Source: Candidatus Jordarchaeales archaeon
GTDB lineage: Archaea; Asgardarchaeota; Jordiarchaeia; Jordiarchaeales; Freyrarchaeaceae
Assembly: GCA_038858525.1 (NCBI GenBank)
Contig: JAWCFL010000003.1
Location: forward strand, 28,830-60,829
Direction: 5' to 3'
Length of the DNA stretch: 32,000 nucleotides
Every line of letters begins with the position of its first letter. Positions within the stretch are counted from its first letter, which is position 1. The translations under genes and the position numbers were made by a program. Of this stretch, positions 5,541 to 31,769 are shown in pieces. Under the pieces are notes generated by a model. The model was not told the DNA's origin. It searched no databases and worked only from the letters and a program-made list of their open reading frames with translations.

Positions 5541-6500
5541 GTGGGGGAAGACATGAAGGAAAGCGTTGAGGAGTATGTTGCTAAGTGTGCCACCTTGGCG
5601 ATGTTACTCGAGGTAAGCGGCTTCCCTAAGCCGGGGAACGTACACCGTGTCCGTGACATGGAAGACACAAGATTTGAGCACTTCTTGGCTGGCGCCGTGG
5701 CTGTAGGTCCATCAATGGGAAGGCTTGCTGAGAGAGGAAGAAAGGCTGAGGCTGGAGAGATAAGTGTAGAGGAGATACAGGTGGGGCGCTTCGTTCTTGA
5801 GTCCGTTGAAGCCGCTTCTAGGTGGCATAGGGGGGGAAACACTAATCTCGGAGAGATATTGCTTTTCGCCCCGCTCTCCGCAGCTGCAGGAATGTGCTTC
5901 GCCTCCTCGGGTGAGGTATCAGCGCCTCTTCTTAGAGAGAAAACTTCAAGGGTAATCGATGGGACCACAGTGGAGGACACTATAAAGGTTTACGAAGCAA
6001 TACGTTTAGTGAAGCCCGGCGGGCTGGGTAAAGTAGAAAGGCTCGACGTTAATGATCCCTCTTTCAGAGAAAAGATCACTTCAGAGAGAATCTCCCTGAA
6101 GAAGGTGTTCGCCATAAGCGCGGAGTGGGATTCCATTAGCGCAGAGTGGGTTAACGGGATGAAAACAGTCTTCGATTTAGGATACCCGAGCTTCAAAATG
6201 TATCTTGAGGAGGGAAGCGATGTGAACACAGCCACAGTAAACACCTTTCTGAGGATACTCTCCGAGAAACCCGATACGCTAATAATTAGGAAAGCGGGGG
6301 CTGAGGCGGCACGCTACGTTAGCACGAAGGCAAGGGAGGCGCTTAAAGCGGGTGGAGCATCAACTCCTGAGGGGAGAAAGCTTTGCTGGATGCTGGATGA
6401 GGAGCTACACGGCGCAAAGGGGCGACTTAACCCGGGCACCACAGCGGACCTAACCGCAGCCTCAATATTCGTCTGCCTATTAGAGGGAGTACGCTACTGA
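5541..6500 (+). CDS. citG: CitG family triphosphoribosyl-dephospho-CoA synthase homologue
   Basis: LEVSGFPKPGNVHR, GNTNLGEILL, DTLIIRKAG and C-terminal LNPGTTADLTAA motifs. Confidence 0.88.
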   Translation: MGEDMKESVEEYVAKCATLAMLLEVSGFPKPGNVHRVRDMEDTRFEHFLAGAVAVGPSMGRLAERGRKAEAGEISVEEIQVGRFVLESVEAASRWHRGGNTNLGEILLFAPLSAAAGMCFASSGEVSAPLLREKTSRVIDGTTVEDTIKVYEAIRLVKPGGLGKVERLDVNDPSFREKITSERISLKKVFAISAEWDSISAEWVNGMKTVFDLGYPSFKMYLEEGSDVNTATVNTFLRILSEKPDTLIIRKAGAEAARYVSTKAREALKAGGASTPEGRKLCWMLDEELHGAKGRLNPGTTADLTAASIFVCLLEGVRY

Positions 6501-6592: not shown

Positions 6593-7612
6593 ATGCCTTT
6601 AGGTGTGTTTCTGACAAGGCACTCAGCTACAGCGTCTTCGTTGGAGGGAGCGCTTCTCCACGACTCTAAGCTCTCGGAGGAGAACATAATATCGTTTTTT
6701 TCGAATTATAATTTCAGGATAGGAAGGGTTGATCTCGTCGAGGTTAATGGGGAAAGCATTCTCTTCGGGGCTGTTAATAAAGGCGAAAACGTGCTTCTCC
6801 TTGGAGTTATAGTAGAAAACGACGTTGAGAAGGATGTTTTTAGAGACTTAATTATTGACGAGGCAACCGCTATGCTTCAAGAAAGGGAGGGAGGATTTCC
6901 AGCGTTGATCGGGTTCTACAGTAGTATTCTGGAGAAGGCGACTAGGGAAGTTGAAAAAAGAATTGTGAGCCTAAAAGAGAAACTAGCGGTAATAGGTGAC
7001 CAGCAAAAGAAAGCGAGGACGCTGCTTGAGACGAGATATGACGAAGAGGTCAGGGTGGCGGAGAAAGCGAGGGAAAACGAAAGAGCTCTGGATGATCTAG
7101 AGAAGCTCTTCAGGGAAGAGAAAGAAATCGAGGAAAAAATGGAAGCAATAATGAAGGAGAGGGAGAGAATAGCTGAGGGGTTGAGCTCGCTGAGAGGAGC
7201 TTTAGATCGCATGAACGGCGTATCGGCTCAGCTTCAACTTATCCGCTCCCAAATGATGGAAAAGGCGGCTGAGGCTGAAAAAGCGGCGCCACTGGAAGAG
7301 AAGTTTTACACTGTTTTCGATGTGCTTAAGAGAGATTATGGTGACGACAAAGCGATACTTCTCGAGTACTTGTATATAATCAAGAAGCCGCAGACACCCG
7401 ACGAAATAGATTTCCACGTTAAAATGGGTGTTGACGCGCTTAAAGCTATACTTAACCAGCTCGTTAAAGACGGATACGTTTGCACCCTTAGGAAGAAGAA
7501 TGACCCGAACATTTACTTTACCGTGTGTCCCTCATGCCCCTTAAGCGCTAAGTGCAAAAGGGAGAGAAAGATAGATTGGGACAAAGTTCTTTCTCTTATC
7601 AAGACTGAATAG
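6593..7612 (+). CDS. hypothetical: N-terminal alpha/beta (longin-like?) domain, coiled coil, C-terminal winged helix with Cys cluster
   Basis: E/K/R-rich heptad region at about aa 110-235. wHTH segment ILLEYLYIIKKPQTPDEIDFHVKMGVDALKAILNQLVKDGYV followed by CPSCPLSAKC. Confidence 0.7.
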   Translation: MPLGVFLTRHSATASSLEGALLHDSKLSEENIISFFSNYNFRIGRVDLVEVNGESILFGAVNKGENVLLLGVIVENDVEKDVFRDLIIDEATAMLQEREGGFPALIGFYSSILEKATREVEKRIVSLKEKLAVIGDQQKKARTLLETRYDEEVRVAEKARENERALDDLEKLFREEKEIEEKMEAIMKERERIAEGLSSLRGALDRMNGVSAQLQLIRSQMMEKAAEAEKAAPLEEKFYTVFDVLKRDYGDDKAILLEYLYIIKKPQTPDEIDFHVKMGVDALKAILNQLVKDGYVCTLRKKNDPNIYFTVCPSCPLSAKCKRERKIDWDKVLSLIKTE

Positions 7613-7621
7613 ACGGAAGCG

Positions 7622-8746
7622 GTGAGTGAAGGGTTGTCAAAGGTTCTTAGGAGAAGAGCTCTCTGCCTGAGGCTAGTTAGGAGTTTAACCTTGAAGAATG
7701 GAAGCTTTACGATACAGGATGTAGTTGATGAGACTGGGCTTCCCCGAACCACTGTCCAAGACTGGATAAGGCGCCTCGTTGATGAGGGATTAGTTGCCGT
7801 TGTTGAGGAAGCTGTCGGGCGTAAACCGGCAAGGTACATTTACGTGGAGAGGGAGGTCTTCCCGTACCAAGCATGTAAACGCATATTCACCAGCGTAGAC
7901 CTCGATAATGGTCTCGTTGAGATATATCATGAGTGTAGCAGTGAGGGCGCGGTCATTTTTTGTGCCTTTAAGCATTCTAAGGCTGGTGGCGCCATATTGG
8001 AGTCGAGATATGAGGGGCCATTCTTAAGGGAGCTCGCTGTTCTCGGAGAAGAGAGGGAGGTTGCCTCAGGGGCATCTATGGCTGTTGAGAAAGTGGAGGT
8101 GTCAGGCGGGAAGGTGCTTCAAACCATTAGAGCAGTTGGGGGGCCAGCGCATGCACTGACAGAGACTATGATGTTTGCTCAGGGCGTAAGGGAGTTGAGG
8201 GTGGAGCAGAGGGAGGGATATGTTAGAGGGGTTATCGCCACGGATTGCCTTGAACATTTGACCATAGGGATAGACGACACGGATACCGCTGAGTCCGGAG
8301 CCACATGGGCGCTGGCATTATCTTTGCTGAAGAGCCTTGAGGGATTTGTCGAGGGAATAAGCCACAAGGTTGTCCTCTTAAACCCTAATGTGAAATATAA
8401 AACTGCGGGGAACGCTGCGAGCTTCATAGAAGTCGCGGCGCCCTCTGATAGGGTGAGCTCGCTGGTCAGCAAAGTTATAAGTATAGTGGAAAACGAAACT
8501 TACTCGGACAACACAGCGATAGCGGTCCTGAAGGGGTTAACGATTCCCGACGAGCTGAAGGTCTTCGCTAACAGGGTGAGAAGAATGGAGGTCACCGTGG
8601 AGGAGGCGGAAGAGGTTGCTAAGAGGGCTGGCATTAATGTTTATGAGGTTACCGGTAGACGAGGCATCATAGGCGCCATAGCAAGCTTAGCCTTTTTCAG
8701 GTCTCCTCCAGAAGTCTTAATGAACCCCGATGCAAGCCTACAGTGA
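7622..8746 (+). CDS. HTH-fused TiaS-N-terminal-like / methanogenesis marker 11-like protein
   Basis: N-terminal HTH (FTIQDVVDETGLPRTTVQDWIRRLVDEGLV). C-terminal IGIDDTDT..GATWALA, KTAGNAAS and GRRGIIGAIA motifs. Confidence 0.7.
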   Translation: MSEGLSKVLRRRALCLRLVRSLTLKNGSFTIQDVVDETGLPRTTVQDWIRRLVDEGLVAVVEEAVGRKPARYIYVEREVFPYQACKRIFTSVDLDNGLVEIYHECSSEGAVIFCAFKHSKAGGAILESRYEGPFLRELAVLGEEREVASGASMAVEKVEVSGGKVLQTIRAVGGPAHALTETMMFAQGVRELRVEQREGYVRGVIATDCLEHLTIGIDDTDTAESGATWALALSLLKSLEGFVEGISHKVVLLNPNVKYKTAGNAASFIEVAAPSDRVSSLVSKVISIVENETYSDNTAIAVLKGLTIPDELKVFANRVRRMEVTVEEAEEVAKRAGINVYEVTGRRGIIGAIASLAFFRSPPEVLMNPDASLQ

Positions 8747-8748
8747 AG

Positions 8749-9408
8749 TTAGATTTTCCTCGGCTTTCTTCTCCTGTACTTTGACCTGAGACGCTTCTCT
8801 TTCTCTTTTAGAAGCTCAGGGCTAACCGCCTTACGCTTCTCCATCTTCAGGTAGTTCCTCAGCCACTCGACGTCAGGATACTCTGGAGGTTTATCAGGTA
8901 GCTCCCTTTCACATTTGGGGCACTTTGTGTTTCCGAACAGTACTCTTCCACAGTTTGGACAGAAACCATGCTCTAAAAGTTTCCTTCTTAAGTTGCGAGC
9001 ATTCCTGAATTCCATGGCGGCAAATACGGCGAAGCCACCCATAGCCGCGAGGGCGAAGTAAACCATTTCGATGGGTGTTCTACCTTGGGTATACCACTGC
9101 AAGAAGATCATGAATGATAAGTCTGGTGCGAGAAGCATTTGAAGGATAGGGGGGTACTGGCTTTGAAGGCCATTCATTATTATGGCTATGCTTGCAACAA
9201 ACCCTGCTATGTAAAGGGTTAACATGCGCCTCACGCTACTCCGCCTAGCTAGGTCTTCATGTGTGAGGCACTCTATACACACTTCTCCCGTGGCGTCTTT
9301 AACTCTTTCAAGGCATACCTTACAGAAAAGGCGCTTACACTTTATGCACCGCCCGGTTGCCGCATACTTAGGGTGGAATGTGCAGGGATGGTATTCCCTA
9401 CTGGACAA
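8749..9408 (-). CDS. B-box-like zinc finger membrane protein with C-terminal zinc ribbon
   Basis: CTFHP...CIKCKRLFCKVC...CIEC, two hydrophobic helices, FCPNCG...CPKC and a basic tail. Confidence 0.7.
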   Translation of the reverse strand: MSSREYHPCTFHPKYAATGRCIKCKRLFCKVCLERVKDATGEVCIECLTHEDLARRSSVRRMLTLYIAGFVASIAIIMNGLQSQYPPILQMLLAPDLSFMIFLQWYTQGRTPIEMVYFALAAMGGFAVFAAMEFRNARNLRRKLLEHGFCPNCGRVLFGNTKCPKCERELPDKPPEYPDVEWLRNYLKMEKRKAVSPELLKEKEKRLRSKYRRRKPRKI

Positions 9409-9516
9409 CGGTCTCCCCCACTTTTAACTGAGGAGATGACAGTTAAGACTCAAGTTTCAAGGTTAAAAAGCTTTTTAACGTTTACCGGGGCGTGTAGCAG
9501 ATGGGGGTGTCAAGGT

Positions 9517-9837
9517 TTGTGCGAGTTTAGGGTCAAGGTTGTAGAACGTGACGGCGAGAGGGAAGTCGCAAGCGACATAGTATATGTCAAGGTTGATGGG
9601 GGAAGTGTCACTTTGAAGGATATAACGGGTAAGCCTGTTAAAGTTGAGTCGGCGCTGGTGAGCTACATTAACGTTACATCTGAGGAGCTACACCTGATAA
9701 AGCATCCCTTGATAGGGGCCTTCTTAAGGTTACTCTCAAGTCTCCCAGCTTCAAGCAACGTAAAAGAAGCCCAAGCGCTATGGGAATCCTTCGTTAAAGA
9801 TGGAGAGAAATTGCTGAGAGACGCGTATAGCTCATAG
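9517..9837 (+). CDS. CooT family nickel-binding protein with helical C-terminal extension
   Basis: TTG at 9517 after GGGGTG gives MCEFRVKVVERDGEREVASDIVYVKVDGGSVTLKDITG, matching the CooT N-terminal MC motif. The track ORF from 9259 is over-extended. Confidence 0.7.
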   Translation: MCEFRVKVVERDGEREVASDIVYVKVDGGSVTLKDITGKPVKVESALVSYINVTSEELHLIKHPLIGAFLRLLSSLPASSNVKEAQALWESFVKDGEKLLRDAYSS

Positions 9838-10866
9838 AACATGTATGAAGTCCTTCGCGTTAGCCTCTTGAGATCCGACCAGCACACGGTAGTACTCTTC
9901 GCCCTTCCCTTCAACTCTTTCTAGCTTACCGTGCACCCTTATCCTTTCACTCTCCTCCAAAATGTCGCAGAAAAGACCTTCATATGAGGTAACTTCTCTC
10001 ACGCCCTCAACCGGTTCTCTCTCCAGGAAGACGACGTCCTCAACCTCGTAGCGGCAAGGCAGGAAAAGCGCATCTCTACAAGACGAAACGGTCGCCTCAA
10101 TAGTGCAGAACCCAAGACTCCTGTAAATCTTCTCACCGTAGACTTCATTTATTTCAGCGTCCTCCTTTACAGGATGAATGGAAAACCTTGTACCTTCATA
10201 GAACCCTATGTTCCATTTTCGCTCCAGTATCTTCTTGGCTTGTGTTTTCGAGAGCTGGAAGACCCCTTCCTTCTTGCGGATCCACTCTTCAGCCGCATCG
10301 CCCATAAAAGGCGTAACGGCTTCCCTCCTCAAGTTTAGGATGCTTTCCTTCACCCGTAAGGCGTTCTTTCTTCCGTAAACCGTTAAGTCTATGTCCGAGA
10401 AGGAGGGGTTATGGATGTCTATCAATATGGAGCCGGTTACACCAAACTTCTCTACTGGGACTTCACTTTCACTGGACAATAGCTGGATCAGGGAAAGAGC
10501 CTTCGACTGTAACGGGTCAAGTTCTTCCTTTACAAGTAAACTCGCAACCTTTACTTCAGGATGGTAGCGTTCTACTATTTCACTCCTGGGAACAGCTGAG
10601 AAAGTTATACCGTAGACGTCAGAGTAAAAAAGGTATTTCGGGTGGTCTCTCAGTATTGAGAAGGTGTCTGCGACGGATGCGGCATCATACCTTGCAAGAA
10701 CTCTGTGGAAGCGTGTGGAGCTACCCCACTTTCCGGAGGGGTTTGGAACGTACTTGAGGTAAGCCAGCGTCCTGTCCGGCGGGTGCTCGTAACCGACGAC
10801 ACAGAAAAAGAAGCCCTCGCCCGTTTTTAGAAAGTCCCTATCGCGTTCAGCCCTCACCAAACTCAC
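9832..10866 (-). CDS. predicted nucleotidyltransferase (COG1665-like), paralogue 2
   Basis: RDFLKTGEGFFFCVVGYEHPPDRTLAYLKY and Pol-beta motif GVTGSIL...SDIDL. Confidence 0.85.
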   Translation of the reverse strand: MSLVRAERDRDFLKTGEGFFFCVVGYEHPPDRTLAYLKYVPNPSGKWGSSTRFHRVLARYDAASVADTFSILRDHPKYLFYSDVYGITFSAVPRSEIVERYHPEVKVASLLVKEELDPLQSKALSLIQLLSSESEVPVEKFGVTGSILIDIHNPSFSDIDLTVYGRKNALRVKESILNLRREAVTPFMGDAAEEWIRKKEGVFQLSKTQAKKILERKWNIGFYEGTRFSIHPVKEDAEINEVYGEKIYRSLGFCTIEATVSSCRDALFLPCRYEVEDVVFLEREPVEGVREVTSYEGLFCDILEESERIRVHGKLERVEGKGEEYYRVLVGSQEANAKDFIHVL

Positions 10867-11864
10867 CTCTTAACTATAAGAAAGTCGCCTCTTTCTCCTC
10901 CTATGACAAGCCTGAAACACTCACCCTCCTCAGACGTAACGGCCTCAACTTTACCCTTCGCCATTATCTTTTCTCCCTCTTTGGCTTGGTCGCTGAAGCG
11001 CCCCCTCAGCGAGAACACTTCATTCACGGGTTTCGTCACACCGTCCAATACGCGCACTTTCTCCAAAACGTAGCGGCAGGGGGTGAAAATGGCGTCCGAG
11101 TCGTCGGAGACGACACCTTCAATTAACGCGTAGCCTAAAGGCGTATACCTCTTTTCCCCATAGGACTCACCGTACTCGTCGGGAAACTTCACGAAGCGAA
11201 GAAAGAAGTCGTATCCCATAACTAGGCCCGACATGTGCTTTCGCCGTTCACTTCTTGCAAACTCCTCATAGCTCATAGTAGTGTCTTTAAGCCTAAACTC
11301 GTAGAGGCGCTTCAGTCCGAATTCATCATAAGCCTTGACGTCTCCTCCTTCAGCCATGAGGTCGCCGACAGCCCTGTATGCTTTCCGGGAGTTCACCTCA
11401 CCGAAAACCACTAGGTCAACGTCGGACCCTTCTCCCGCTAATCCTACAAGCATGGAGCCCGATACGCCTATGCTGCTTAGGGGTATCCCCGCTTTCCTAG
11501 CTATTTCAAGTGCAAGGTGAACAGCTGCCTCTTCTAGTCCGCTCCTTTCCTCCTCTCCTAGAAGCTGGGAAAGTTTTTCCCGTGGGTCGTAGACTTTCAC
11601 TATTCTGTCCCGTGGAACGCCCTCTAAAACAATGCCGAAGACAGGATCAAAGTAAAGGTATTCTGGCTTTTTGGTTTTGAGTACGGTGTCCCTCTCCGCA
11701 AGCGAGTAAACTTTACGGTATTTCACCCCTCTTCTTTCTCGTTCTCCTTCTCTATCTGGGAAGTAACGCAGGTATGCTATGACTCTATCTGGTGGATGAA
11801 GTAATCCTTTAACGTCAAATATAAGGCCGTCAATGTCCTCTATAAAGAAGCCTTCCATTATCAA
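10863..11864 (-). CDS. predicted nucleotidyltransferase (COG1665-like), paralogue 1
   Basis: EGFFIEDIDGLIFDVKGLLHPPDRVIAYLRY and GVSGSML...SDVDL. Confidence 0.85.
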   Translation of the reverse strand: MIMEGFFIEDIDGLIFDVKGLLHPPDRVIAYLRYFPDREGERERRGVKYRKVYSLAERDTVLKTKKPEYLYFDPVFGIVLEGVPRDRIVKVYDPREKLSQLLGEEERSGLEEAAVHLALEIARKAGIPLSSIGVSGSMLVGLAGEGSDVDLVVFGEVNSRKAYRAVGDLMAEGGDVKAYDEFGLKRLYEFRLKDTTMSYEEFARSERRKHMSGLVMGYDFFLRFVKFPDEYGESYGEKRYTPLGYALIEGVVSDDSDAIFTPCRYVLEKVRVLDGVTKPVNEVFSLRGRFSDQAKEGEKIMAKGKVEAVTSEEGECFRLVIGGERGDFLIVKR

Positions 11865-12814
11865 GCGTTACCGCCAGCCTGAAGCTCTTTTTTCAATTCT
11901 CCAACTCTGGCGCGCCTATAGGCTACGGCATTATGGGGGTGAACTGACTCGATGCTCTCCACCCTAACTTCTATAATGTCTTCGTCTGAGAGCTGGTTGA
12001 GCCTTGTTAAGGCGTTCAGTATGATTAGCCTCGCAACGTCCTCCACGAAAAGAGGGTTTAGGTGTGCGAGTCTAACCAAGCTGGCTTCGTCAGGCCTCTT
12101 TAAGACGTCATGTATAACACCACTCATCGAATCCTCAACTATTTTAACCAACTCAGAGACATCTATGCTGCTATTCCTCACTTCTACGGTGAGGGAACCT
12201 ATGCAGCGCTGACTGTGGGATGCAAGCGGAACCAAGCTGAGAATCTTGCGTATGGCATCCTCACTTAATGATAGTTCTTCAGTCCTCTTTCTGATAACGC
12301 TTTCAGCGTAATCCTTCACCAGCTCCTGGGCGCAGGGACAAGCAGTCATACCTTCAACATCCACGCCCAAGAAAATTCTTGTCTCGATTTTTCCGCTTTT
12401 CCTAACAGCCTTGCCCTCAACGTGCAGCATGTATGCCTTCTGGCGTTTAACCTCGCTTTCACTAGCTCTCACGTCAAGCACCACCGGCCCCTCTAGGAGT
12501 ACCCTTGCTTTATCAGCGTAGTCATGTTTCTCCAAGAGGCGTGTTAACATCTTCCTGCAAAGCTCCTCAATGCTTCCAACGGGGGAATACGTTATGTCTT
12601 CCACTATGCTCTCAATAGTCTCACTACTCCTCGAAAGATGCACTCCTCTCTGCTCCCTAGGCAGGTTTATAAAAACGGATATTTTAGGAATTAGAGAAAT
12701 CTCGCTTCTCCCTTTGACTATTCTAACTCGTTTTATTAGTCCTGTTATACCTACTTCGTCGAGCGATACAGGTATTCGGGACTTCTCGTTTTGGACATCA
12801 GGCAGATTACTCAT
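11861..12814 (-). CDS. mptA: GTP cyclohydrolase MptA (FolE2 family)
   Basis: LPDVQ, RGVHLSR, GMTACPCAQ, SHSQR, LFVEDVAR and ESIESVHPHNA motifs. ATG at 12814 overlaps the upstream stop. Confidence 0.93.
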   Translation of the reverse strand: MSNLPDVQNEKSRIPVSLDEVGITGLIKRVRIVKGRSEISLIPKISVFINLPREQRGVHLSRSSETIESIVEDITYSPVGSIEELCRKMLTRLLEKHDYADKARVLLEGPVVLDVRASESEVKRQKAYMLHVEGKAVRKSGKIETRIFLGVDVEGMTACPCAQELVKDYAESVIRKRTEELSLSEDAIRKILSLVPLASHSQRCIGSLTVEVRNSSIDVSELVKIVEDSMSGVIHDVLKRPDEASLVRLAHLNPLFVEDVARLIILNALTRLNQLSDEDIIEVRVESIESVHPHNAVAYRRARVGELKKELQAGGNA

Positions 12815-14351
12815 GCCAACCACCGAAAACGTCCACGTCTTGAACGTAGCTTTTGCCGAGCTTCAGACATACTTCAGCTTTCTCTAGCTCTCTTCCGAGG
12901 TAAATGGCGTGCTCCAGCGAGCCCACCAGTCCCTCCGAAAGAATTGCTTTACCAATGTGTTCAGCACTTCTCCCAGCAAAAAGCATTTCTCCCTTTACTC
13001 CCCTGTACAACGTGAAAATTCTGCCATCATCATGACTCACCCATATAGTAAAGTATCCTAGAGGGTCAGGCGAGTAATCATCAACCTTCACCTCAGAAAT
13101 AACGCGCATTCCTTCTGTGTCTGGGGGCTCAAAGTACTCCTTCTTACTTTTAGCCACAAAAACATCCACGCCGAGATCCTTTGGAGGAGTGGAAAGAGCC
13201 TTCGCCATGTATGCCAGCTTTCTTGCGGCTGCAACTTCTCTCACGCATCCACGACACTTGACGCTGTTCTCTGTTGTCAGGAGCACGGCGACACCCAACT
13301 CCTGTGCCAGCAATGCCAGAAACACGTTTACCCCTACACTGTCTGCATCTATGAACTCCGTCACGTTCCCTGCTCCAAAAAGAAGAGGAGTTACTTCATC
13401 CATATCCCTAAAGAAAAAGTAGGATCTAAGGGAATTTGCGATGCCAGGATTTATGGGAGGTTCGAGAAGTGGGTCCGCTAAAACCTTAACCAGCCCAGCC
13501 CCCCTAACCTCTTTAACCAGTTCAAGCGTCTTCCTTGCTCTTTCTTCAGGGCTTCTTGGAATTTCTCCTTTCTTCACGTTGGTCGGCAGAATAGTTACAG
13601 CTACGTCACTCGGCAACTTAACTTCTTCAAAGTTGCCATAGTCCAAGCTAAGCACCATGTCGGCGCCAGCCTCCACGGCCGCCTCGATCTCCGCAGGATT
13701 CAAGCTGTCCACACTAACAGGAACCCTAAATTTTTCCCTCACCACATGTACAAGGTCAGATATTTTGCGAGAGTTATCTTTCCCGACGATCGCGCCGATG
13801 TCGATCATGTCCGCTCCCGACTCCAAAAAATACTCTGTCCTAGCTATTACTTTGCTGAGGGGGAGCTCAGGGGCATCCACAACCTCCGCTAACACTCTGA
13901 CTGGACCATCCACTCCAACGTAGACCGGCTCTACATCCACCCTCCCTATTGTGAAGCCCAAATGGAAGCCCTCAGTCAGCTCGCCTAACTTACTCCACGC
14001 CTCATCCCTTAACCTGGCAAGTACGACGTCTAATGCTTCTTCCTTTGATAAGGAAGCAAAGTTCTTGAGTATTAGAGGTATGTCGCACGCGTACCTTGGT
14101 CCCTTAAAAACCGGGACCCCCAGCTGCTCCTCAACAGCGCTGACGTCACCCCTTAAAAGCCCTGGGACAATTATGGCGTCATACTTCTCTCTTGAGACCA
14201 CTCCTTTAAGGTGTTCCACGAGCATTTGTGGGGTGATTAGAGCCGCCACTGAGACGGGCAGAGACACGACGTCAACTTCGATCTCAAGGCTCTCGGCATA
14301 CTTTCTGACTTGACCCTCAGCGAGGCGACCTGTGACAAATAGCACCCTCAA
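12807..14351 (-). CDS. dihydropteroate synthase-like protein (archaeal methanopterin-associated type, C-terminal DUF4346-like domain)
   Basis: VLFVTGRLAE N-domain; pterin-binding barrel (VLAEVVDAP, ADMIDIG, VSVDSLNP, ADPLLEP, GAGNVTEFIDADSVGVN); C-terminal DPLGYF...HAIYLGRELEKAE. Confidence 0.9.
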   Translation of the reverse strand: MRVLFVTGRLAEGQVRKYAESLEIEVDVVSLPVSVAALITPQMLVEHLKGVVSREKYDAIIVPGLLRGDVSAVEEQLGVPVFKGPRYACDIPLILKNFASLSKEEALDVVLARLRDEAWSKLGELTEGFHLGFTIGRVDVEPVYVGVDGPVRVLAEVVDAPELPLSKVIARTEYFLESGADMIDIGAIVGKDNSRKISDLVHVVREKFRVPVSVDSLNPAEIEAAVEAGADMVLSLDYGNFEEVKLPSDVAVTILPTNVKKGEIPRSPEERARKTLELVKEVRGAGLVKVLADPLLEPPINPGIANSLRSYFFFRDMDEVTPLLFGAGNVTEFIDADSVGVNVFLALLAQELGVAVLLTTENSVKCRGCVREVAAARKLAYMAKALSTPPKDLGVDVFVAKSKKEYFEPPDTEGMRVISEVKVDDYSPDPLGYFTIWVSHDDGRIFTLYRGVKGEMLFAGRSAEHIGKAILSEGLVGSLEHAIYLGRELEKAEVCLKLGKSYVQDVDVFGGWHE

Positions 14352-15082
14352 AATCCAAGGTCCCTCCTCAAGTAGAGTGTTATCTCTTGGGGGTGTTTTA
14401 ACACGCGGACTCCATCCATTTCTGAAAGCCTCTTGACGTTCTCCGCGTCCACCCTTCTGACTCGAGTCTTAACTCGCCTTCCAAAGACAACCGCCCTGTA
14501 GGGGCACTCGTTGACGCATAAAAAACAGCCAACACACTTTAACAGGTTCACTATGGGCTTACCTTCGACTCTCACAAAAGCAGTATTTGGGCACTTTTCC
14601 TCTGGAAGACAAAGCGCACAGCCTAGGCACACGTCCCTGTCAACGAATACTGGCAAAGTGGTTTCAACTTCTCCTTCATCGTAGTCTGTTGGAACCACGT
14701 AAACGGGAACTCCGCTTTTTATCGCTTGAGCAAAGGCTGTCGTAATTAACGTGTCACATATGCCGAAAGCCATCTTTGCAACGGTGTTGGAGGTTGCTGG
14801 AGAGACTATGAAGGCGCTGTACTTTCCCGAGGCGAAGCGTCCAGCCTTAGGAAAACTGGCTCCTTCCTCTCTTTCGAGCACCACTTCCTGATAGTATCCT
14901 CCAGGGGCTATCGTCCCAAGCTCCCTAAAAACGCCATACATCCTGGCTACTTCTTCTCCCGCCCTAGAAAGAAAAACGGTGACTGCGACTTTGAACTCCT
15001 TTTTTAGTTGCAGAAAGACTTCCAAGGTTTCCCTCATGAAGTGGCCTGCTCCCGTAATTCCCCAAGCTAACCTAAACACCAA
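14348..15082 (-). CDS. dmrX: dihydromethanopterin reductase, archaeoflavoprotein with ferredoxin insert (MJ0208/DmrX type)
   Basis: LAWGITGAGH and VSPATSNTVAK flavoprotein motifs plus CLGCALC...C and CVGCFLCVNECP 4Fe-4S motifs. Confidence 0.85.
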   Translation of the reverse strand: MVFRLAWGITGAGHFMRETLEVFLQLKKEFKVAVTVFLSRAGEEVARMYGVFRELGTIAPGGYYQEVVLEREEGASFPKAGRFASGKYSAFIVSPATSNTVAKMAFGICDTLITTAFAQAIKSGVPVYVVPTDYDEGEVETTLPVFVDRDVCLGCALCLPEEKCPNTAFVRVEGKPIVNLLKCVGCFLCVNECPYRAVVFGRRVKTRVRRVDAENVKRLSEMDGVRVLKHPQEITLYLRRDLGF

Positions 15083-16151
15083 GCTTCCTCCTTAGGTCAC
15101 GTATCTCGTCGAAGTAAACGTAGTCCAGCACCGAGCCATACGCGTCCTTTATCCTGAGTCTTTCAACGAGCGGCTTACAGCACCCGCCGGATAAACCGTT
15201 TGCTATGAGGGCGGCGCCTTGAGCAGCCTCCTTAGCTATCCTGGCGAACCCCTTAACTCTTCTTGTGGGAGCAAAACGTGTAAGCCGACTCTCAAGCTCT
15301 CTTCTTATTCTCTCAACTCTAGCAAGTCGCCCCGAGAGAAGTATCGAGTCGAAGTTGTTTAAAGAAGCGGCAACCGAAGCTACGTCTTTAACGGTTCCCT
15401 CAATGAGCGCGTCCCAAGCAAGTTTGAATCTTTCATCCCGCTCCGCCATGAGGGCAAACTCCTCAGGGGTTACACTTTCATACCCGGCAATGTATGTTGC
15501 CCCACCGGTATATAGCAACTTTTTCTCAAATCCACCCAGCAAGTAGGCTACCTCGGCGTCCATTCCTCCGCACGCCATGAAGCCCATGCAACCCTCGGCG
15601 CCGCCTACAGCGTCTACGATCTCTCCCCTCTCCACTCCTATGACCGCCGTAAAGCCTCCTCCCATCTCTATGAGAACAAACGAAACGTCATCGTATTCTG
15701 CGTTTTTCTCACGGGCAGCCTCCCAGAGAGCTAGGGCCACGCTGCAAAGTTTATCGGACGTTCCCATATCTATCTTGTTAACTTTCCTATAAGATGGAAT
15801 TGAAGGAAGGTGCTTAATTCCCGGAATAACGTATCCTTCAACTCCTTCATTTATGAGGAGCTTCACAACATTCTCTAAGCCTATAATTCGGGCTTCCTTT
15901 TCCTTCTTTAAAGTCATGAGAAAGAACTGCTTCTCATCTAAATCTTTAAGCTTCGTGAGCGGCAAACCATAGCCGCTGGGGGCAACAACCAAGTCAACTG
16001 ACCCCATTGATTTAACTATCTTTACAACTCGAGACGGCTCCTCCAGAACTTCTCTTGTAGGTATCGATGTATCTAGAACGACGTCCTCCTCGTCCAAGCC
16101 GACAATGTCCCACGAACTAGTGCCAGGGTCTATGCCGCAAACTCGGACCAA
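15072..16151 (-). CDS. DUF1464 family ASKHA (acetate/butyrate kinase-like) protein
   Basis: GIDPGTSSWD, APSGYG, KIDMGTSDK, EMGGGFTA, LLSGRL and AAQGAALIANG motifs. Confidence 0.85.
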   Translation of the reverse strand: MVRVCGIDPGTSSWDIVGLDEEDVVLDTSIPTREVLEEPSRVVKIVKSMGSVDLVVAPSGYGLPLTKLKDLDEKQFFLMTLKKEKEARIIGLENVVKLLINEGVEGYVIPGIKHLPSIPSYRKVNKIDMGTSDKLCSVALALWEAAREKNAEYDDVSFVLIEMGGGFTAVIGVERGEIVDAVGGAEGCMGFMACGGMDAEVAYLLGGFEKKLLYTGGATYIAGYESVTPEEFALMAERDERFKLAWDALIEGTVKDVASVAASLNNFDSILLSGRLARVERIRRELESRLTRFAPTRRVKGFARIAKEAAQGAALIANGLSGGCCKPLVERLRIKDAYGSVLDYVYFDEIRDLRRKLGV

Positions 16152-16176
16152 CTACTTCCCCCGCAACCACAAAGCC

Positions 16177-17190
16177 TTAGTGCCTGAGAGTCAAGATAGC
16201 CTCCTCGAAAACTTGAGCGCCCGTATTATTAACTTTAGCTATGAAACACTCGCCTCCAATTATGGACAAGTAGGTTTCGACTTCGGAGAGAAGGGACTCT
16301 GCAGCCCTCTTACCTTCAACCACGCCGAAGACTGCCGGGCCGAATGAGCTCATCCCCGCCCCAGCGGCCCCCCATTTTATCATGGAATCTATAAGTTCCT
16401 TAACTAGCGGAGGCTGCAGGGAAACTTCTAACTTTTTAAAGCCCAACCCCTGAATCTCGGTCAGCCCCTCACCGAAAGAAGACAGGTCTCTTTCAACGAC
16501 TGCGGGAAGGATCTTCATAAGGATAAGGTGGCATATAGCCTCAACTTCGTGTCTGGGAATAGGGCAAAACTTCTCAAAGATCTTCACTTCCTTAGCACCG
16601 TGCGCTCCTTTCTCAACATTAGGAACCCCAACAACGAAAAACCACTTTCCGGGCATGTTATACCTTACCAGTACCGGTGCGGGGGGAGCTGAGGAGGCGG
16701 ATGAGGGAAGAAACTTTTCCTTATCCTTCCCCTTGCCGAAGCTATGCCCCCCATCCAGAATGAAACCTCCTCTCTCAAAGGCTGCAACACCAATACCGGA
16801 TGTTCCCCCCCTTCCCGTAATCGACGCGAGGCGCCTTACGTCGCAATTTAATCCAAAAAGGGAGGATACAGCCTTAGCAACGGCAAGCGAAAGCTGAGTC
16901 TTGGAGCCCAAGCCAACATGCTCCGGAATGGCTTCCAGAACTTCCACTCTGACCCCTGATTCTATATTGAACGCCTCGACGACTTTTCTGAGCACAGCTT
17001 CAGCGGAGTCTTTCCTTAGGCCATAAACTTCTTGCCTGTCAGAGAGAGAGGCTTTCACAACAACGTTGGGCCTATCTATAGCCACACCTATTCCGCCGTC
17101 CACCCTGCTGAGAGAGCCATTTAAGTCGATAAGCGTGAAGTGGAGGCGGGCCGGCGTCTTCACGTACACTTCCTTCAACCAAACCACCAT
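16177..17190 (-). CDS. mptG: beta-ribofuranosylaminobenzene 5'-phosphate (RFAP) synthase, GHMP family
   Basis: TPARLHFTLIDLNG, HVGLGSKTQ, GRGGTSGIG, GGFILDGGH and GMSSFGP motifs. ATG at 17190 (track start 17208). Confidence 0.92.
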   Translation of the reverse strand: MVVWLKEVYVKTPARLHFTLIDLNGSLSRVDGGIGVAIDRPNVVVKASLSDRQEVYGLRKDSAEAVLRKVVEAFNIESGVRVEVLEAIPEHVGLGSKTQLSLAVAKAVSSLFGLNCDVRRLASITGRGGTSGIGVAAFERGGFILDGGHSFGKGKDKEKFLPSSASSAPPAPVLVRYNMPGKWFFVVGVPNVEKGAHGAKEVKIFEKFCPIPRHEVEAICHLILMKILPAVVERDLSSFGEGLTEIQGLGFKKLEVSLQPPLVKELIDSMIKWGAAGAGMSSFGPAVFGVVEGKRAAESLLSEVETYLSIIGGECFIAKVNNTGAQVFEEAILTLRH

Positions 17191-17609
17191 CACGATAAAA
17201 TTTAACAAAGTTTACTTAACTACATATCAATTTTCAAAGTTACACTTCAAGCCTAAAAAAAAGAAGGACAAACCTAGGATATAAGAGTTTTCGTCAGCTA
17301 GCAAAGAAACAACTTCACCAATAAACTTCAGGCTCGCAGACACATCTTTCACTAGAGGCAGCTACAGGCCAGAGTTTCGGCAGATTACTAGATTATAACA
17401 AGAAGATACATTAATTACCACTCAAAATATAATAACCGTGTCCCGACCTCGAATCAATCGGCACCTTTTACGATACATTACTCCGATCCCTTCCCCTAAC
17501 ACGTAATCCTCGCCTCTTCGCTATTTAGATTATACAACGCCCGAAAAGGCACTAAACCTGAAGGCACATCAATCCTTCCGCCTTTTCACGTTACATGGAC
17601 CAACGAAAA

Positions 17610-17641
17610 TTGTTTAAGAGCTACGTTGTTTAAGAGCCACG
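17610..17641. repeat. 16-bp tandem direct repeat, 2 copies
   Basis: TTGTTTAAGAGCTACG / TTGTTTAAGAGCCACG (1 mismatch). Confidence 0.6.
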
Positions 17642-18443
17642 CGGTAGCCAAGACAAAAATTAATTTAAGAACTAGAAAGTACACTTGACTCATCATACCG
17701 CCAGGCAAAATTTTTATGAGAAAAATAGTCGAGTGCTTACCAAATTACTGAGCATACAGATACATGTATTTTTAATGTTTTCTTAAGTTTGAAAAAGGTA
17801 TAGATGTCTATACAAGGCACTTATTCTGACAGCCCACTTATATGAGGCTCTTCAAATTCTGTCTTTTACATGCAGGATGACATGGAGAGTGTTTTGCGAG
17901 GGCTTTTCTTCACATTGGTAAGCATTAGCATACTGATTAGTTGTTGGAGGCATTACGGTCGTAACAGTAACTGAAAACACATGAAGGAGACTCATTGACG
18001 AATACAAGGCATAGATAACAAGCCTCACTTACAGGTTAGCCATAACAGCCTATCGCTCAAATGACAAAACAAGCATCATGGTCACGTCAACCTCAAGCAT
18101 ATTGAAAAGGCAATTTCAGCCTGCGGCAAAGCCAGTAATAAATCAAGAGCGCAATGGAAGAAGAATTAGAGAAAAAACCTAAAGCCATGTAGCTCGTAGA
18201 AAAGTCAGCGGAACTTAAATCACCAGCACGAGTATAAGAGGTCTACAAATAGCAGAGTAACACATCAACAGCACATGTGGAGACGAGGAAGATGCAAAAG
18301 CATGTATGAACACGCCTATTGAATCTGTGTCATCCTTAAGTTGCCAATGAAAACTTAAAGGCTGAAACGGAAGAGGTAGTGAAAGGTTAACTGTTCGGCG
18401 ACAGAGAACTTACTAGTAATTTAAAGGTGAAAAATGGAATAAA

Positions 18444-18567
18444 TGGTGCGACCGCCGGGATTTGAATTCCCTGGCCACCTTTATGTGGCCTCCCGGGTCA
18501 CAGGCTTGGGGGGCCTGGGTCCTAGACCATTCTAGAGCCCCACGAGGGTTGGCTAGACCACGGTCGC
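18444..18567 (-). tRNA. tRNA-Gly(CCC) with two non-canonical introns (D-loop about 17/17a, 18530-18550, 21 nt; 53/54, 18467-18491, 25 nt); CCA encoded
   Basis: Spliced: GCGACCG UG GUCU AGCCUGGUCU AGGAC C CAGGC CCCCCAA GCCUG UGAC CCGGG UUCAAAU CCCGG CGGUCGC ACCA (78 nt). BHB-like motifs at both introns. Confidence 0.92.
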
Positions 18568-18657: not shown

Positions 18658-19674
18658 TTGAGGGTTCTTCCAGTGGGTAAGGTTCCTGTTGACGTTTTAG
18701 AGAAGGTTGTTTTTCCACGTGTTGGAGCTAGGAGTGAGCGGGTTATCCTTGGCCCTGCTGTTGGAGAGGATGCTGCTGTAATTGATGCGGGGGATAAGTT
18801 TCTTGTCGTTTCTTCTGACCCAATAACGGGTGCAAGTAGGGATGTTGGGTGGTATGCGGTTCACGTTAATGCCAATGATGTTGCTGTTAGGGGGGCTAGG
18901 CCGCTGTTCTTGACTTTGACTGTGCTTCTTCCGAGGGGGGCGAATGAGGAGCTTTTGGAGGAGGTGATAAAGGGGGCGGATTCCGCTGCTAGGGAGCTTG
19001 GTGTATCGATAGTTGGTGGTCACACCGAGGTTACTCCGTTTTTGGATCATCCGGTGGTTTGTGGTACGATGATAGGGGAGGTTGAGAAGGAGAAGCTTGT
19101 AACCACAGGTGGTGCTAAACCGGGGAATTTGATTGTTGCCACCAAGCATGCAGGGCTTGAGGGGGCTTCGATCTTGGCATGGGAGCGATACGGGGAGCTA
19201 GTTGACGTCGTTGGAAAAGAGGCGCTTGACAGGGCTAAGAGGTTCTCTGAGGAGCTGAGTGTTGCGCGTGAGGCGCTAGCCCTTAATGAGAAGTGTAGAG
19301 TTATGGCTATGCATGACCCAACGGAGGGAGGAGTTATTGGGGGTTTGATTGAGCTGGCCATAGCCTCAAAAGCAGGTTTTTGTGTTGAGGTGAAAAACAT
19401 CCCCGTCTCTGAGGAGACAAGGAAAATTTGTGAGGCGCTGTCAGTCAACCCTCTTAGGCTAATATCTAGTGGAGTGCTGCTGGCGGCCATTGAGAGAGAA
19501 GATGTTGAGGTGGCAGCTGAGGTGCTCAATGGTTTAGGTGTGCGGTGGAGTATAATAGGCGAGGTTACTGAAAGAGGTAAAATAGTAATAGGGGAGCAGG
19601 GGGCTGTAGAGGTTGGTGGCGAAATTGTTGAAGAGTTATGGGAGGCGCTCAGGAGGCCTGTTGTGCGGCGTTAA
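18658..19674 (+). CDS. AIR synthase-related (HypE/ThiL/SelD superfamily) protein
   Basis: GPAVGEDAAVI, SSDPIT, NANDVA, IVGGHTEV, MHDPTEGG and LRLISSG motifs. TTG start with GGAGG SD. Lacks the HypE C-terminal PRIC. Confidence 0.85.
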   Translation: MRVLPVGKVPVDVLEKVVFPRVGARSERVILGPAVGEDAAVIDAGDKFLVVSSDPITGASRDVGWYAVHVNANDVAVRGARPLFLTLTVLLPRGANEELLEEVIKGADSAARELGVSIVGGHTEVTPFLDHPVVCGTMIGEVEKEKLVTTGGAKPGNLIVATKHAGLEGASILAWERYGELVDVVGKEALDRAKRFSEELSVAREALALNEKCRVMAMHDPTEGGVIGGLIELAIASKAGFCVEVKNIPVSEETRKICEALSVNPLRLISSGVLLAAIEREDVEVAAEVLNGLGVRWSIIGEVTERGKIVIGEQGAVEVGGEIVEELWEALRRPVVRR

Positions 19675-20831: not shown

Positions 20832-22352
20832 GTGAAAAGAGAGGTTATGGAAGTTTTAATCATGCAACCAGCATTTGGGGAGATTAGCGTTTCCGATTTT
20901 TTCTATAGGCATAGGGAGCTAGCAGGCTTCTCTAACCCGTCTCGCGCAACTTACATGGTTATTCGTGAAGCCGTGGAGAATAGTCTGGATGCTTGTGAGG
21001 AGGCAGGCATCCTTCCAAACATTAAGGTTTCATTGAGCTACACAGGGGATGAGTTGTGCCACTTGAGGGTTGAAGATAATGGGCCTGGAGTACCGCCGAG
21101 CGAGGTTCCTTTCGCTTTCGGCAAGTTTCTTTATGGCTCTAAATTCGGGGTTAGGCAGAGTAGGGGTGTCTTTGGGCTTGGGATCACGATGGCCCTCCTT
21201 TACAGCCAGGTTACGTCGGGTAGGCCAGCAAGGATCATCGTGAGTAATGGAGGAGACATTTTCGAGGTTAAGCTCAGAATTGACATCGAGAAAAACATGC
21301 CATTAGTTGAGGGGAAGAAGCGTCTCGCAAACATGGAGGAGTGGCATGGCTCCATCGTTGAACTCTACTTTAAGGGGGATTATCCTAGGGCTGAGAAGAG
21401 GATCATGGAGTACTTTAAGCTGACGAGCATAGCTTCGCCGCATGCCGAGATAGCGTTCACGGATCCGGCGGGCGACCAACATTTGTTTAGGAGAAGTGTG
21501 GAGAAGGCACCTAAACAGCCAGTGGAGACGCTGCCCCATCCTCATGGGGTGGATGCTGAGATGCTAAGGAGACTCCTAAAAAGGAGTGAGGGGAAAAGTC
21601 TTCTTTCCTTCATGGTTAAGAGCTTTCAGAGAGTCGGGTATGCCACCGCCAGGAAGTTTCTTGAGTCTGCCGGGTTTAGTCCACACCAGCCTACTTCGAC
21701 GCTCACGAACGACGATGTGTTGGAGTTACTGGATGCTATGAGAAAGTATAGTTTTCCTCCACCAGACGCTAGATGCCTTTCCCCTATAGGGGAGGACGCT
21801 TTAAGAGACGCTATTATGAGGATTTTCGAGCCGGAGTTTGTGGCGGTGTGTGAGAGGCCGCCGTCCGTGTATCTTGGGCACCCATTCATAGTGGAGGTAG
21901 CGGTGGCGTATGGATGTAAGGGAATTGAGGGAGAAATTGTCCTTTACAGGTTTGCTAATAGGGTCCCCCTTATTTATGATGCTCATAGCGATGTTTCCAT
22001 GAACGTTTTGAGGAGGTTTAACTGGGGAAGTTATCTGCATGTTCGTCCACAGGCAACAGCGGTTTTCACTCATATATGCTCAACGAGAATACCATTCAAA
22101 ACTGCGGGTAAGGAGTGCATCGCTGACCCACCTGAAGTCGAAAGGGAAATAGAGTTAGCCCTAAAGGAGTGTTGCAGACGCTTAAAAACGCACTTAACTG
22201 GAAGAGTAAGCGTGGAGGAGCGAGGGAGGAGGTTTAACGCATACAAAAAATACCTTCCCAAGATTGCACAGTTTGCCTCTGAGTTGGCTGGCAGAAAAAA
22301 TGCGCCTAACGTATCTCTCATTCTTGAGCGGATCCTGGAGGGGAAAAATTGA
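20832..22352 (+). CDS. top6B: DNA topoisomerase VI subunit B
   Basis: GHKL motifs EAVENSLDA, VEDNGPG, GSKF..RQSRGVFGLG; PHPHGVD; RFANRVPL. Start may be ATG at 20862. Confidence 0.95.
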   Translation: MKREVMEVLIMQPAFGEISVSDFFYRHRELAGFSNPSRATYMVIREAVENSLDACEEAGILPNIKVSLSYTGDELCHLRVEDNGPGVPPSEVPFAFGKFLYGSKFGVRQSRGVFGLGITMALLYSQVTSGRPARIIVSNGGDIFEVKLRIDIEKNMPLVEGKKRLANMEEWHGSIVELYFKGDYPRAEKRIMEYFKLTSIASPHAEIAFTDPAGDQHLFRRSVEKAPKQPVETLPHPHGVDAEMLRRLLKRSEGKSLLSFMVKSFQRVGYATARKFLESAGFSPHQPTSTLTNDDVLELLDAMRKYSFPPPDARCLSPIGEDALRDAIMRIFEPEFVAVCERPPSVYLGHPFIVEVAVAYGCKGIEGEIVLYRFANRVPLIYDAHSDVSMNVLRRFNWGSYLHVRPQATAVFTHICSTRIPFKTAGKECIADPPEVEREIELALKECCRRLKTHLTGRVSVEERGRRFNAYKKYLPKIAQFASELAGRKNAPNVSLILERILEGKN

Positions 22353-23392
22353 GGGATGTTTTAGTTAAACTGGAGGCGCTTGGGGAATCAATTTGCGTCC
22401 AGCTTGAAAACGGGGAGCTACCGTTTATAGACATACCGAGCAGAACAACTTCAAACATAATCTACGACAAGGCAGAGGGAAGATTCGTTCTCGGTGAAGC
22501 GAGAACTAGGAGGACGACTTCAAACGTGAAGCATCTTCGTGCATTCACACAGACAGTTTGGATGGCCTACATGGCTAAGAGGCTCATAGAAGAGGGGAAG
22601 AGCACAACTCTAAGGGACCTATACTATATGGCTGAGTCCTACGGTGTGAAGTTCAAGGACCAACAAGAGTCTGACAGTATAATAGCGGACCTTGAAGCCC
22701 TCCTCGGAGTGCCGAGAGAACAACTGCGAATATTTCCCGAGGAGAGAGCCACAGTCTACGGCGACCTCACAATAAAATATAACGTTCAAGGATACGAAAA
22801 GACGACGCTCAACCTGACCGCAAGCCCTGACGGAGTGGCAATAGGTCCGGCGCTAGCGGGAGCAGAGTTCCAAAATTGCGGAGCCGAAAGGGTGATCATG
22901 GTTGAAAGCGGAGGAATGTTCACTCGCCTAATAGAGGAAAGGGCACATGAAAAGTTTAAAGCGTTACTGATACACACAGCCGGACAAGCCCCCCGCCTAG
23001 CTAGACAATTCGCCTATAGACTGAGAAGGGAGCTAGGGTTGCCAGTATACGTCTTTACGGACGGAGACCCATGGGGGGCGCACATAGCAATGGTGGTAAT
23101 CAGCGGCTCGGCAAATGCGGCCCACGTGGATAGCATAGTAATACCGGACGCCAAATGGATAGGCGTGCTTCCTACAGATATAGAAGAATACAAGCTTCCT
23201 TTCGAAAAGTTCAACGAAAAAGACTGGAAGAGGCTGCACGACCTTATGGCTGACCCAAGATACCAGTCTCCATTCTGGAGGGAACAACTTAAAAGGTTCG
23301 AGGAAGAGGGAAGAAAATCTGAGCAACAAGCCTTAAGCATACATGGATTAAGCTATGTAACCGAAAAGTACCTTCCAGAGAAATTTGCCTAA
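22349..23392 (+). CDS. top6A: DNA topoisomerase VI subunit A
   Basis: TLRDLYY catalytic Tyr, Toprim VIMVESGGMF and TDGDPWG, KSEQQAL. Overlaps the top6B stop. Confidence 0.95.
   Translation: MRDVLVKLEALGESICVQLENGELPFIDIPSRTTSNIIYDKAEGRFVLGEARTRRTTSNVKHLRAFTQTVWMAYMAKRLIEEGKSTTLRDLYYMAESYGVKFKDQQESDSIIADLEALLGVPREQLRIFPEERATVYGDLTIKYNVQGYEKTTLNLTASPDGVAIGPALAGAEFQNCGAERVIMVESGGMFTRLIEERAHEKFKALLIHTAGQAPRLARQFAYRLRRELGLPVYVFTDGDPWGAHIAMVVISGSANAAHVDSIVIPDAKWIGVLPTDIEEYKLPFEKFNEKDWKRLHDLMADPRYQSPFWREQLKRFEEEGRKSEQQALSIHGLSYVTEKYLPEKFA

Positions 23393-30282: not shown

Positions 30283-31769
<1,487 letters not shown>

Follow-up and report, generated by a model that had tools for sequence, protein, structure and literature searches.

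The DNA analysed here (the window) is a 32,000-nucleotide stretch of contig JAWCFL010000003.1, from the genome of a Candidatus Jordarchaeales archaeon (GCA_038858525.1) belonging to the Jordarchaeia within the Asgard archaea. Seven open reading frames (ORFs), all on the minus strand, tile positions 9832 to 17208 and comprise mptG, a gene of the DUF1464 family, dmrX, a dihydropteroate synthase (DHPS)-like gene, mptA, and two nucleotidyltransferases of the MJ1086 family (Table 1). Methanopterin serves methanogens, methane oxidizers, and many Asgard archaea and Bathyarchaeia as their central one-carbon carrier, and to our knowledge part of its synthesis is without an assigned enzyme. As of 2011, several steps of the pathway and seven proteins were listed as unknown (PMC3087415). 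The operon is real and its pathway is known; the uncharacterized enzymes within and beside it can be given specific, testable roles, with a candidate gene for each of three unassigned steps and testable functions for MJ1086 and methanogenesis marker protein 12.

The operon and its host genome

The original prediction described a seven-gene methanopterin operon on one strand, with five junctions overlapping by 4–11 bp and a sixth separated by 25 bp. The tiling of the ORFs bears this out: a gap of 25 bp is followed by overlaps of 11, 4, 8, 4, and 4 bp, of which the 8-bp overlap becomes 17 bp if mptA is counted from an upstream GTG. The predicted ribofuranosyl-aminobenzene/phenol 5′-phosphate (RFAP) synthase, DmrX, DHPS-like protein, and MptA all exceed their curated cut-offs, identifying the run as a methanopterin operon. 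The start of mptG is uncertain, lying at either TTG 17208 or GTG 17190. We take the DHPS-like protein to be of the MptH/Orf20 type.

Outside the operon, the host genome carries mch, mptD, mptE, and DUF447, together with a second, paralogous pair of transferases (B1/B2) on contig C18. Since mptD and mptE both lie on contig C1, replacement of MptE or MptD by DUF1464 is excluded. The only chorismate-binding enzyme found in the genome is TrpE, within a trp operon. A citG gene sits 3.3 kb past the end of the operon on the opposite strand, and a gene resembling methanogenesis marker 11 is retained between the two across the Jordarchaeia. Identical gene order is seen in other Jordarchaeia and in one genome of another Asgard family; the nearest named homologues are from Jordarchaeia/Freyarchaeota, and a scan of genome contigs returned two Jordarchaeum loci only. 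The product of the operon is probably tetrahydromethanopterin or a close variant of it.

Table 1. Genes of the methanopterin operon and two associated genes (window coordinates)
Feature	Position	Strand	Basis
mptG, beta-RFAP synthase	16177–17208	-	NF040726, 378 bits (cut-off 328)
DUF1464, ASKHA phosphotransferase, acetate/butyrate kinase branch	15072–16151	-	PF07318, 339 bits
dmrX, Fe-S flavoprotein dihydromethanopterin reductase	14348–15082	-	TIGR02700, 294 bits (cut-off 251)
DHPS-like, couples pterin to arylamine	12807–14351	-	TIGR00284, 367 bits (cut-off 257)
mptA, GTP cyclohydrolase IV	11861–12823 (likely start ATG 12814)	-	TIGR00294, 299 bits (cut-off 220)
MJ1086-family nucleotidyltransferase, subfamily A1	10863–11864	-	Weak NTP_transf_2; tree; 35% identity to MJ1086
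MJ1086-family nucleotidyltransferase, subfamily A2, tandem paralogue	9832–10866	-	Weak NTP_transf_2; 34% identity to A1
CitG-like triphosphoribosyl transferase	5541–6500	+	PF01874, 270 bits
Helix-turn-helix, methanogenesis marker 11-like protein	7622–8746	+	TIGR03280, 156 bits (below cut-off 256); synteny

DUF1464 and a proposed core module

Among 121 Asgard genomes, DUF1464 is present in 51 and mptG in 52, with both in 50, and the DHPS-like gene shows the same pattern across Asgard families. An mptG gene lies within 1.5 kb of DUF1464 at 27 of 30 loci; an mptG-like gene adjoins DUF1464 in a Thermococcus genome, and the two are also side by side in bacterial clusters, where members of the family are grouped with mptG, HPPK-mptA, afpA, the DHPS-like gene, or citG/mch. 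DUF1464 is missing from genomes that retain just citG, a transferase, and mch. Since it shares the profile of mptG and the DHPS-like gene, and is missing where only the genes proposed below to build the tail remain, DUF1464 fits an early rather than a late step, and the late-step role first proposed for it is not upheld.

The predicted structure of the DUF1464 protein (pLDDT 91) has the two-domain ASKHA fold with phosphate loop and connect motifs, and is nearest to acetate and butyrate kinases (Z 22.6–24.9; next, 18.4). Thermotoga Buk2 and M. thermophila Ack share this fold (Z 23.3–24.9, root-mean-square deviation 3.2–3.9, about 300 aligned residues) and the nucleotide-binding motifs, but DUF1464 is only 15%–19% identical to such kinases and scores 37–44 against cut-offs of 222–289. 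Seven acidic residues of its ATP/Mg motifs (D8, D128, D133, E162, D180, D198, and E200) do not vary among 70 members drawn from Asgard archaea, Thermococcus, Sulfolobales, and bacteria. The column of the butyrate kinase catalytic histidine is occupied by Glu162, and the arginine of the PERSG motif is not kept, which makes a small carboxylate an unlikely acceptor. DUF1464 thus appears to be a core-module enzyme that uses ATP and has an acceptor differing from those of acetate and butyrate kinases.

M. jannaschii PurB turns RFSA-P into RFA-P, in an aspartate/PurB route (PMC3261824), and the step that joins aspartate to the phenolic product of MptG is therefore one with no enzyme assigned. DUF1464 might use ATP to activate the phenolic oxygen on the product of MptG, allowing aspartate to replace that oxygen, after which PurB would free the arylamine. 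As an ATP-dependent, mptG-coupled protein in a host whose only chorismate-binding enzyme is TrpE, DUF1464 is the best candidate for this activation, and we put the assignment forward tentatively. We give similar, less than even, credence to DUF1464 acting at another step of the core module, with a PurM-like ATPase activating the phenol instead. DUF1464 could then supply the aromatic precursor (4-hydroxybenzoate or p-aminobenzoate) or help open ribose to ribitol with DUF447/DmrX. The core steps are indistinguishable by profile and adjacency; DUF1464 frequently adjoins afpA/dmrX and DUF447; and a PurM/ThiL-like protein of 450–490 amino acids is encoded close to mptG or mptD in several Asgard families, and is also present in the host genome. 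Ring opening, however, requires a reductant rather than ATP, and DUF447, found in all four archaeal controls, is the likelier candidate for it.

PF07318 was found in only one of 14 control genomes, that of S. acidocaldarius; it had no match in M. jannaschii or M. acetivorans, and M. maripaludis lay outside the search. Both M. jannaschii and M. acetivorans possess methanogenesis marker protein 12 (TIGR03281, UPF0285), which has no match in the host genome. Marker protein 12 is an ASKHA relative of DUF1464 with complementary presence in the control genomes: 14 of 41 DUF1464 members match TIGR03281 (best E 3e-11), and atlas features relate the two families with a score of 0.94. It is nevertheless a distinct family, with the window protein far below its cut-off, and their functional equivalence is our inference: marker protein 12 would fill the role of DUF1464 in classical methanogens. 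The DUF1464 knockouts suggested at the outset for Methanococcus or Methanosarcina are unlikely to be feasible, given that PF07318 is unmatched in M. jannaschii and M. acetivorans.

CitG, the nucleotidyltransferases, and a proposed tail module

The COG1665/MJ1086 label first attached to the two nucleotidyltransferases proved correct, as a profile of the family recovers the MJ1086 cluster; the match of MJ1086 to A1 extends over 340 amino acids (E 3e-58), and its identity to A2 is 28%. The model of A1 (pLDDT 94.9) consists of an N-terminal domain, a Pol-beta core (residues 106–230) that aligns with PolX/TdT (Z 7.3–7.7), and an OB fold (238–333). G136, S137, D148, and D150 are invariant in 48 diverse members, and the GS and SDID motifs are kept in A2. 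Two motifs on the nucleotidyltransferase core, hG[GS] and [DE]h[DE]h, define the Pol-beta nucleotidyltransferase superfamily (PMC2794190), and the window proteins carry both. Four well-supported subfamilies (A1, A2, B1, and B2) were resolved, A2 forming its own clade (SH-aLRT 95), and the single-copy Asgard genomes examined retain A1. Sequence searches of the PDB returned nothing significant, no phage homologue was found, and a Foldseek search with the model gave no match at E ≤ 0.001 and no CitX or MdcG among the matches listed, which were filled by the OB domain.

The transferase occurs in all 52 Asgard genomes with mptG and in 28 more that have neither mptG nor DUF1464 (mch is present in 26 of these and citG in 27); it is found in just two of the 34 that have none of mch, mptG, and DUF1464. 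In 151 genomes of a second phylum, the Thermoproteota (sampled from a Nezhaarchaeota genome), it occurs in 62 of the 69 that carry mch or DUF1464, and in six of the 82 that carry neither. Transferases and citG keep company in Asgard, Bathyarchaeia-like, Sulfolobales, and bacterial loci. At 79 other, metagenomic loci, citG adjoins A1 in 52, in 25 of them within 122 bp. The genes form an mch-rimK-citG-A1-A2 operon in Anaerolineae and an mch-rimK-citG-A1 operon in a Coprothermobacterota-like lineage; DUF1464, a transferase, and citG make up an overlapping run in two Sulfolobales-like genomes. At one locus a transferase gene is flanked by the DHPS-like gene on one side and mptG on the other, and an HPPK-transferase fusion adjoins afpA and the DHPS-like gene. 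No CitG-transferase fusion was seen among proteins of 637–2000 amino acids, which is weak evidence. As the original prediction had suggested, co-occurrence and neighbourhood profiling, together with the HPPK fusion, ties the uncharacterized families to methanopterin-type synthesis, and we are confident that DUF1464 and the transferases both act in this pathway.

Fusions of HPPK with MptA, and of HPPK with the transferase, were recorded in bacterial gene clusters of methanopterin type, from Coprothermobacterota, Anaerolineae, and one further bacterium (L074:4553–6013, L075:5424–6884, and L160:5626–7143). One Asgard family (f5) has citG and mptA but none of mch, mptG, and the transferase; another (f3) has mch, citG, and mptA but no transferase. 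These patterns may reflect other uses or shorter cofactors.

The phylum that holds the Thermococci (91 genomes, Methanofastidiosia included) has DUF1464 in 54 genomes and the transferase in two, with 53 holding DUF1464 without the transferase; citG and an mptG-like gene were each present in the five genomes tested. This pattern implies that the steps of DUF1464 and the transferase are separate. The folates of Pyrococcus and Thermococcus, as White reportedly found in 1993 (work cited in PMC3334880), keep the ribosyl-ribitol core and carry N-acetylglucosamine, with no hydroxyglutaryl phosphate, and the pattern fits a scheme in which CitG supplies the ribose and the transferase whatever lies beyond it. 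We consider it probable that DUF1464 belongs to a core module and the transferases to a tail module.

From ATP, enzymes of the CitG type produce an alpha-triphosphoribosyl glycoside, whose triphosphate CitX/MdcG then consume in joining the product to a hydroxyl group (that of a serine) by a phosphodiester bond. Methanopterin ends in an alpha-ribose-5-phosphate esterified to 2-hydroxyglutarate. We propose that the core module would consist of mptG, DUF1464, and the DHPS-like gene, with mptA, dmrX, and the mptD, mptE, and DUF447 genes located elsewhere, and the tail module of CitG and the MJ1086-family transferases. With ATP as donor, CitG would attach triphosphoribose to the pterin core at the hydroxyl of its ribitol. 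The transferase would then take the triphosphate as a nucleotide-like substrate and link the phosphoribosyl group to 2-hydroxyglutarate through the hydroxyl of the latter, so that pyrophosphate leaves and the phosphodiester results. Two CitG/CitX-like steps could in this way build the tail with no extra kinase. All of these substrates and reactions we infer from observed gene content, linkage, profiles, folds, and motifs. The two-module explanation as a whole we rate slightly better than an even bet; that the transferase forms the hydroxyglutarate phosphodiester is, by analogy with CitX, about an even proposition. A profile that tracks use of the cofactor, and pairing with citG, agree with the late phosphodiester step first suggested for the transferases, whereas for the second ribose-phosphate, also sought among the genes of the operon, CitG beyond its end is the better candidate.

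The likeness to CitG/CitX and MdcB/MdcG lies in a CitG-family enzyme genetically paired, as found here, with a Pol-beta-type transferase bearing GS and SDxD motifs, and in the two-step chemistry proposed. Here the acceptors would be pterin-ribitol and 2-hydroxyglutarate, whereas there they are dephospho-CoA and an acyl carrier protein serine; the window transferases also carry additional N-terminal and OB domains, and have no Pfam or NCBIfam match to CitX/MdcG models at E 0.01. The window CitG scores 74 bits where the cut-offs for true CitG/MdcB are 272–282. Compared with the pathway of M. jannaschii and Methanothermobacter (MptA, B, D, E, G, H, and DmrX), the known enzymes are the same and MJ1086 is homologous to the transferases, but the genes here form one operon, DUF1464 stands in place of marker protein 12, and there are two to five transferase paralogues rather than the one known copy. 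Literature searches found no function for DUF1464, MJ1086/COG1665, COG2441, or marker protein 12, and no link between CitG or triphosphoribosyl transfer and methanopterin; subscription papers were beyond these searches, and prior publication is possible.

The combination of mch, citG, and a transferase without the core module is common, being found in 28 Asgard and, judged by the lack of DUF1464, 26 Thermoproteota genomes; four of five Thermoproteota tested that have the transferase and lack DUF1464 also lack mptG. A gene for an S component of an energy-coupling factor (ECF) transporter is present in 46 of the 79 transferase loci, and lies upstream of the transferase pair in core-less Asgards; of the NCBIfam models, that of the folate FolT family matches it best, at 37 bits where the cut-off is 60. 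This suggests that organisms lacking the core module may often import the pterin core through the FolT-like component and then finish the tail themselves, the simplest reading of the gene content, with genome incompleteness as a caveat. If many uncultured sediment archaea do rely on an imported core, this would bear on cross-feeding and on their cultivation. That three missing steps are filled at once (by DUF1464/marker protein 12, CitG, and the MJ1086 family), and that many Bathyarchaeia and Asgard archaea are core auxotrophs that import the core with a FolT-like transporter and complete it, is a bold combination that we think rather unlikely to hold in full. Sulfolobus, Thermococcus, and methanogens are the cultured hosts to which the analysis points.

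Several observations weigh against the two-module explanation. There are genomes with mptG and without DUF1464 (G190 and G286), a second DUF1464 paralogue in Thermococcales is not adjacent to mptG, and in Thermoproteota mptG lies within 1.5 kb of DUF1464 at only five of 20 loci. The transferase is missing from eight Asgard genomes that have mch, and, because many of the loci are kin, the counts overstate independence. Within the transferases, the slot of the third carboxylate (221, placed by alignment) holds F in A1, S in A2, D in MJ1086, and E in B2, although the nearby D/E219 of A1 might substitute. Up to four or five paralogues occur in a genome, more than one step requires. The transferases might build another tail, of repeated ribose-phosphate units or ending in another acid, with one unit per paralogue, in an undescribed variant of methanopterin. 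Consistent with such a variant, the four subfamilies are ancient and differ in acceptor-slot residues, A1, A2, B1, and B2 co-cluster with citG in many loci, and Sulfolobales-like genomes without mch hold an A2-like copy; on the other hand, single-copy genomes cope with A1 alone, and the gene of M. jannaschii, a maker of standard methanopterin, is equally A1- and A2-like. We rate it as fairly unlikely.

A role in modifying nucleic acid or protein (tRNA editing, or AMPylation of a one-carbon enzyme), with mere co-regulation alongside the cofactor genes, would account for the pairing of a Pol-beta core with an OB fold that best matches DNA- and RNA-binding proteins. It would also suit the B paralogues, which in some Asgards adjoin PSTK/SelB/SepSecS-like selenocysteine genes, and MJ1086 itself, which has no methanopterin neighbours. 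Such a role is made improbable by the tight coupling to citG across phyla, by the HPPK fusion, and by the near absence of the transferases where there is no modified folate pathway. Equally improbable is that DUF1464 is a late-step kinase (terminal ribose diphosphate or 2-hydroxyglutarate phosphorylation), its product being activated or coupled by the transferases in the CofC/CofD-like manner known from F420. This would make use of the ATP-dependent ASKHA fold and of the overlapping run in the Sulfolobales-like genomes, and homologues of the transferase on Streptomyces plasmids, which lie within unrelated small-molecule operons and so also count against a methanopterin role, do come after a phosphotransferase. 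Yet 54 genomes (the 28 Asgard and 26 Thermoproteota) hold the transferase without DUF1464 and the 53 of the Thermococci phylum hold DUF1464 without the transferase, so the two are not one step pair, as the two-module explanation has it.

Related loci and neighbouring genes

Other members of the MJ1086 family were noted in further contexts. The B1/B2 pair, on host contig C18 (L001:8478–10644) and at L061–L063, follows a PSTK/KTI12-like gene and has mfnF/mfnD/orf17-like genes and riboflavin genes nearby, and in other Asgards B2 adjoins SelB/SepSecS/SelD-like genes. On the Streptomyces plasmids (21 records; L158:6226–10428 and L159) the gene is in a GntR-regulated operon with a phosphotransferase, a histidine phosphatase, and methyltransferases, which by its gene content would represent an undescribed small-molecule pathway.

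PurM/ThiL/HypE-like ATPases without family assignment are encoded at 18658–19674 (+) of the window and at L215:7779–9167; the 450–490-residue PurM/ThiL-like type is that described above beside mptG or mptD. A true FolP-type dihydropteroate synthase is encoded at 28714–29940 (−; TIGR01496, 243 bits, above cut-off), and because of its presence folate may be made besides methanopterin in the host, though PabB was not found. Upstream of mptG, a 1.2-kb AT-rich stretch (17209–18440, 41% GC, no ORFs of 80 amino acids) separates the operon from a tRNA-like gene at 18444–18567 (−). In relatives mptG is nearer the AIRS gene than in the window, and the stretch is possibly a decayed insertion. The tRNA-like gene was recognized by eye from its acceptor stem, CCC anticodon loop, and CCA end; its D and T arms are interrupted by two insertions that may be non-canonical introns. 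Neither ARAGORN nor Rfam called this gene, and neither reported any RNA upstream of the operon.

On the other side of the operon, a B-box/zinc-ribbon membrane protein (8749–9408, −), a CooT-like protein (9259–9837, +; true start probably later than 9259), and a 339-amino-acid ORF of no known family (6593–7612, +) are syntenic across the Jordarchaeia. The window also contains housekeeping genes at 30283–31464 (+), 25256–28696 (−), and 20832–23392 (+) (RNA polymerase A″, PolD large subunit, and topoisomerase VI B and A).

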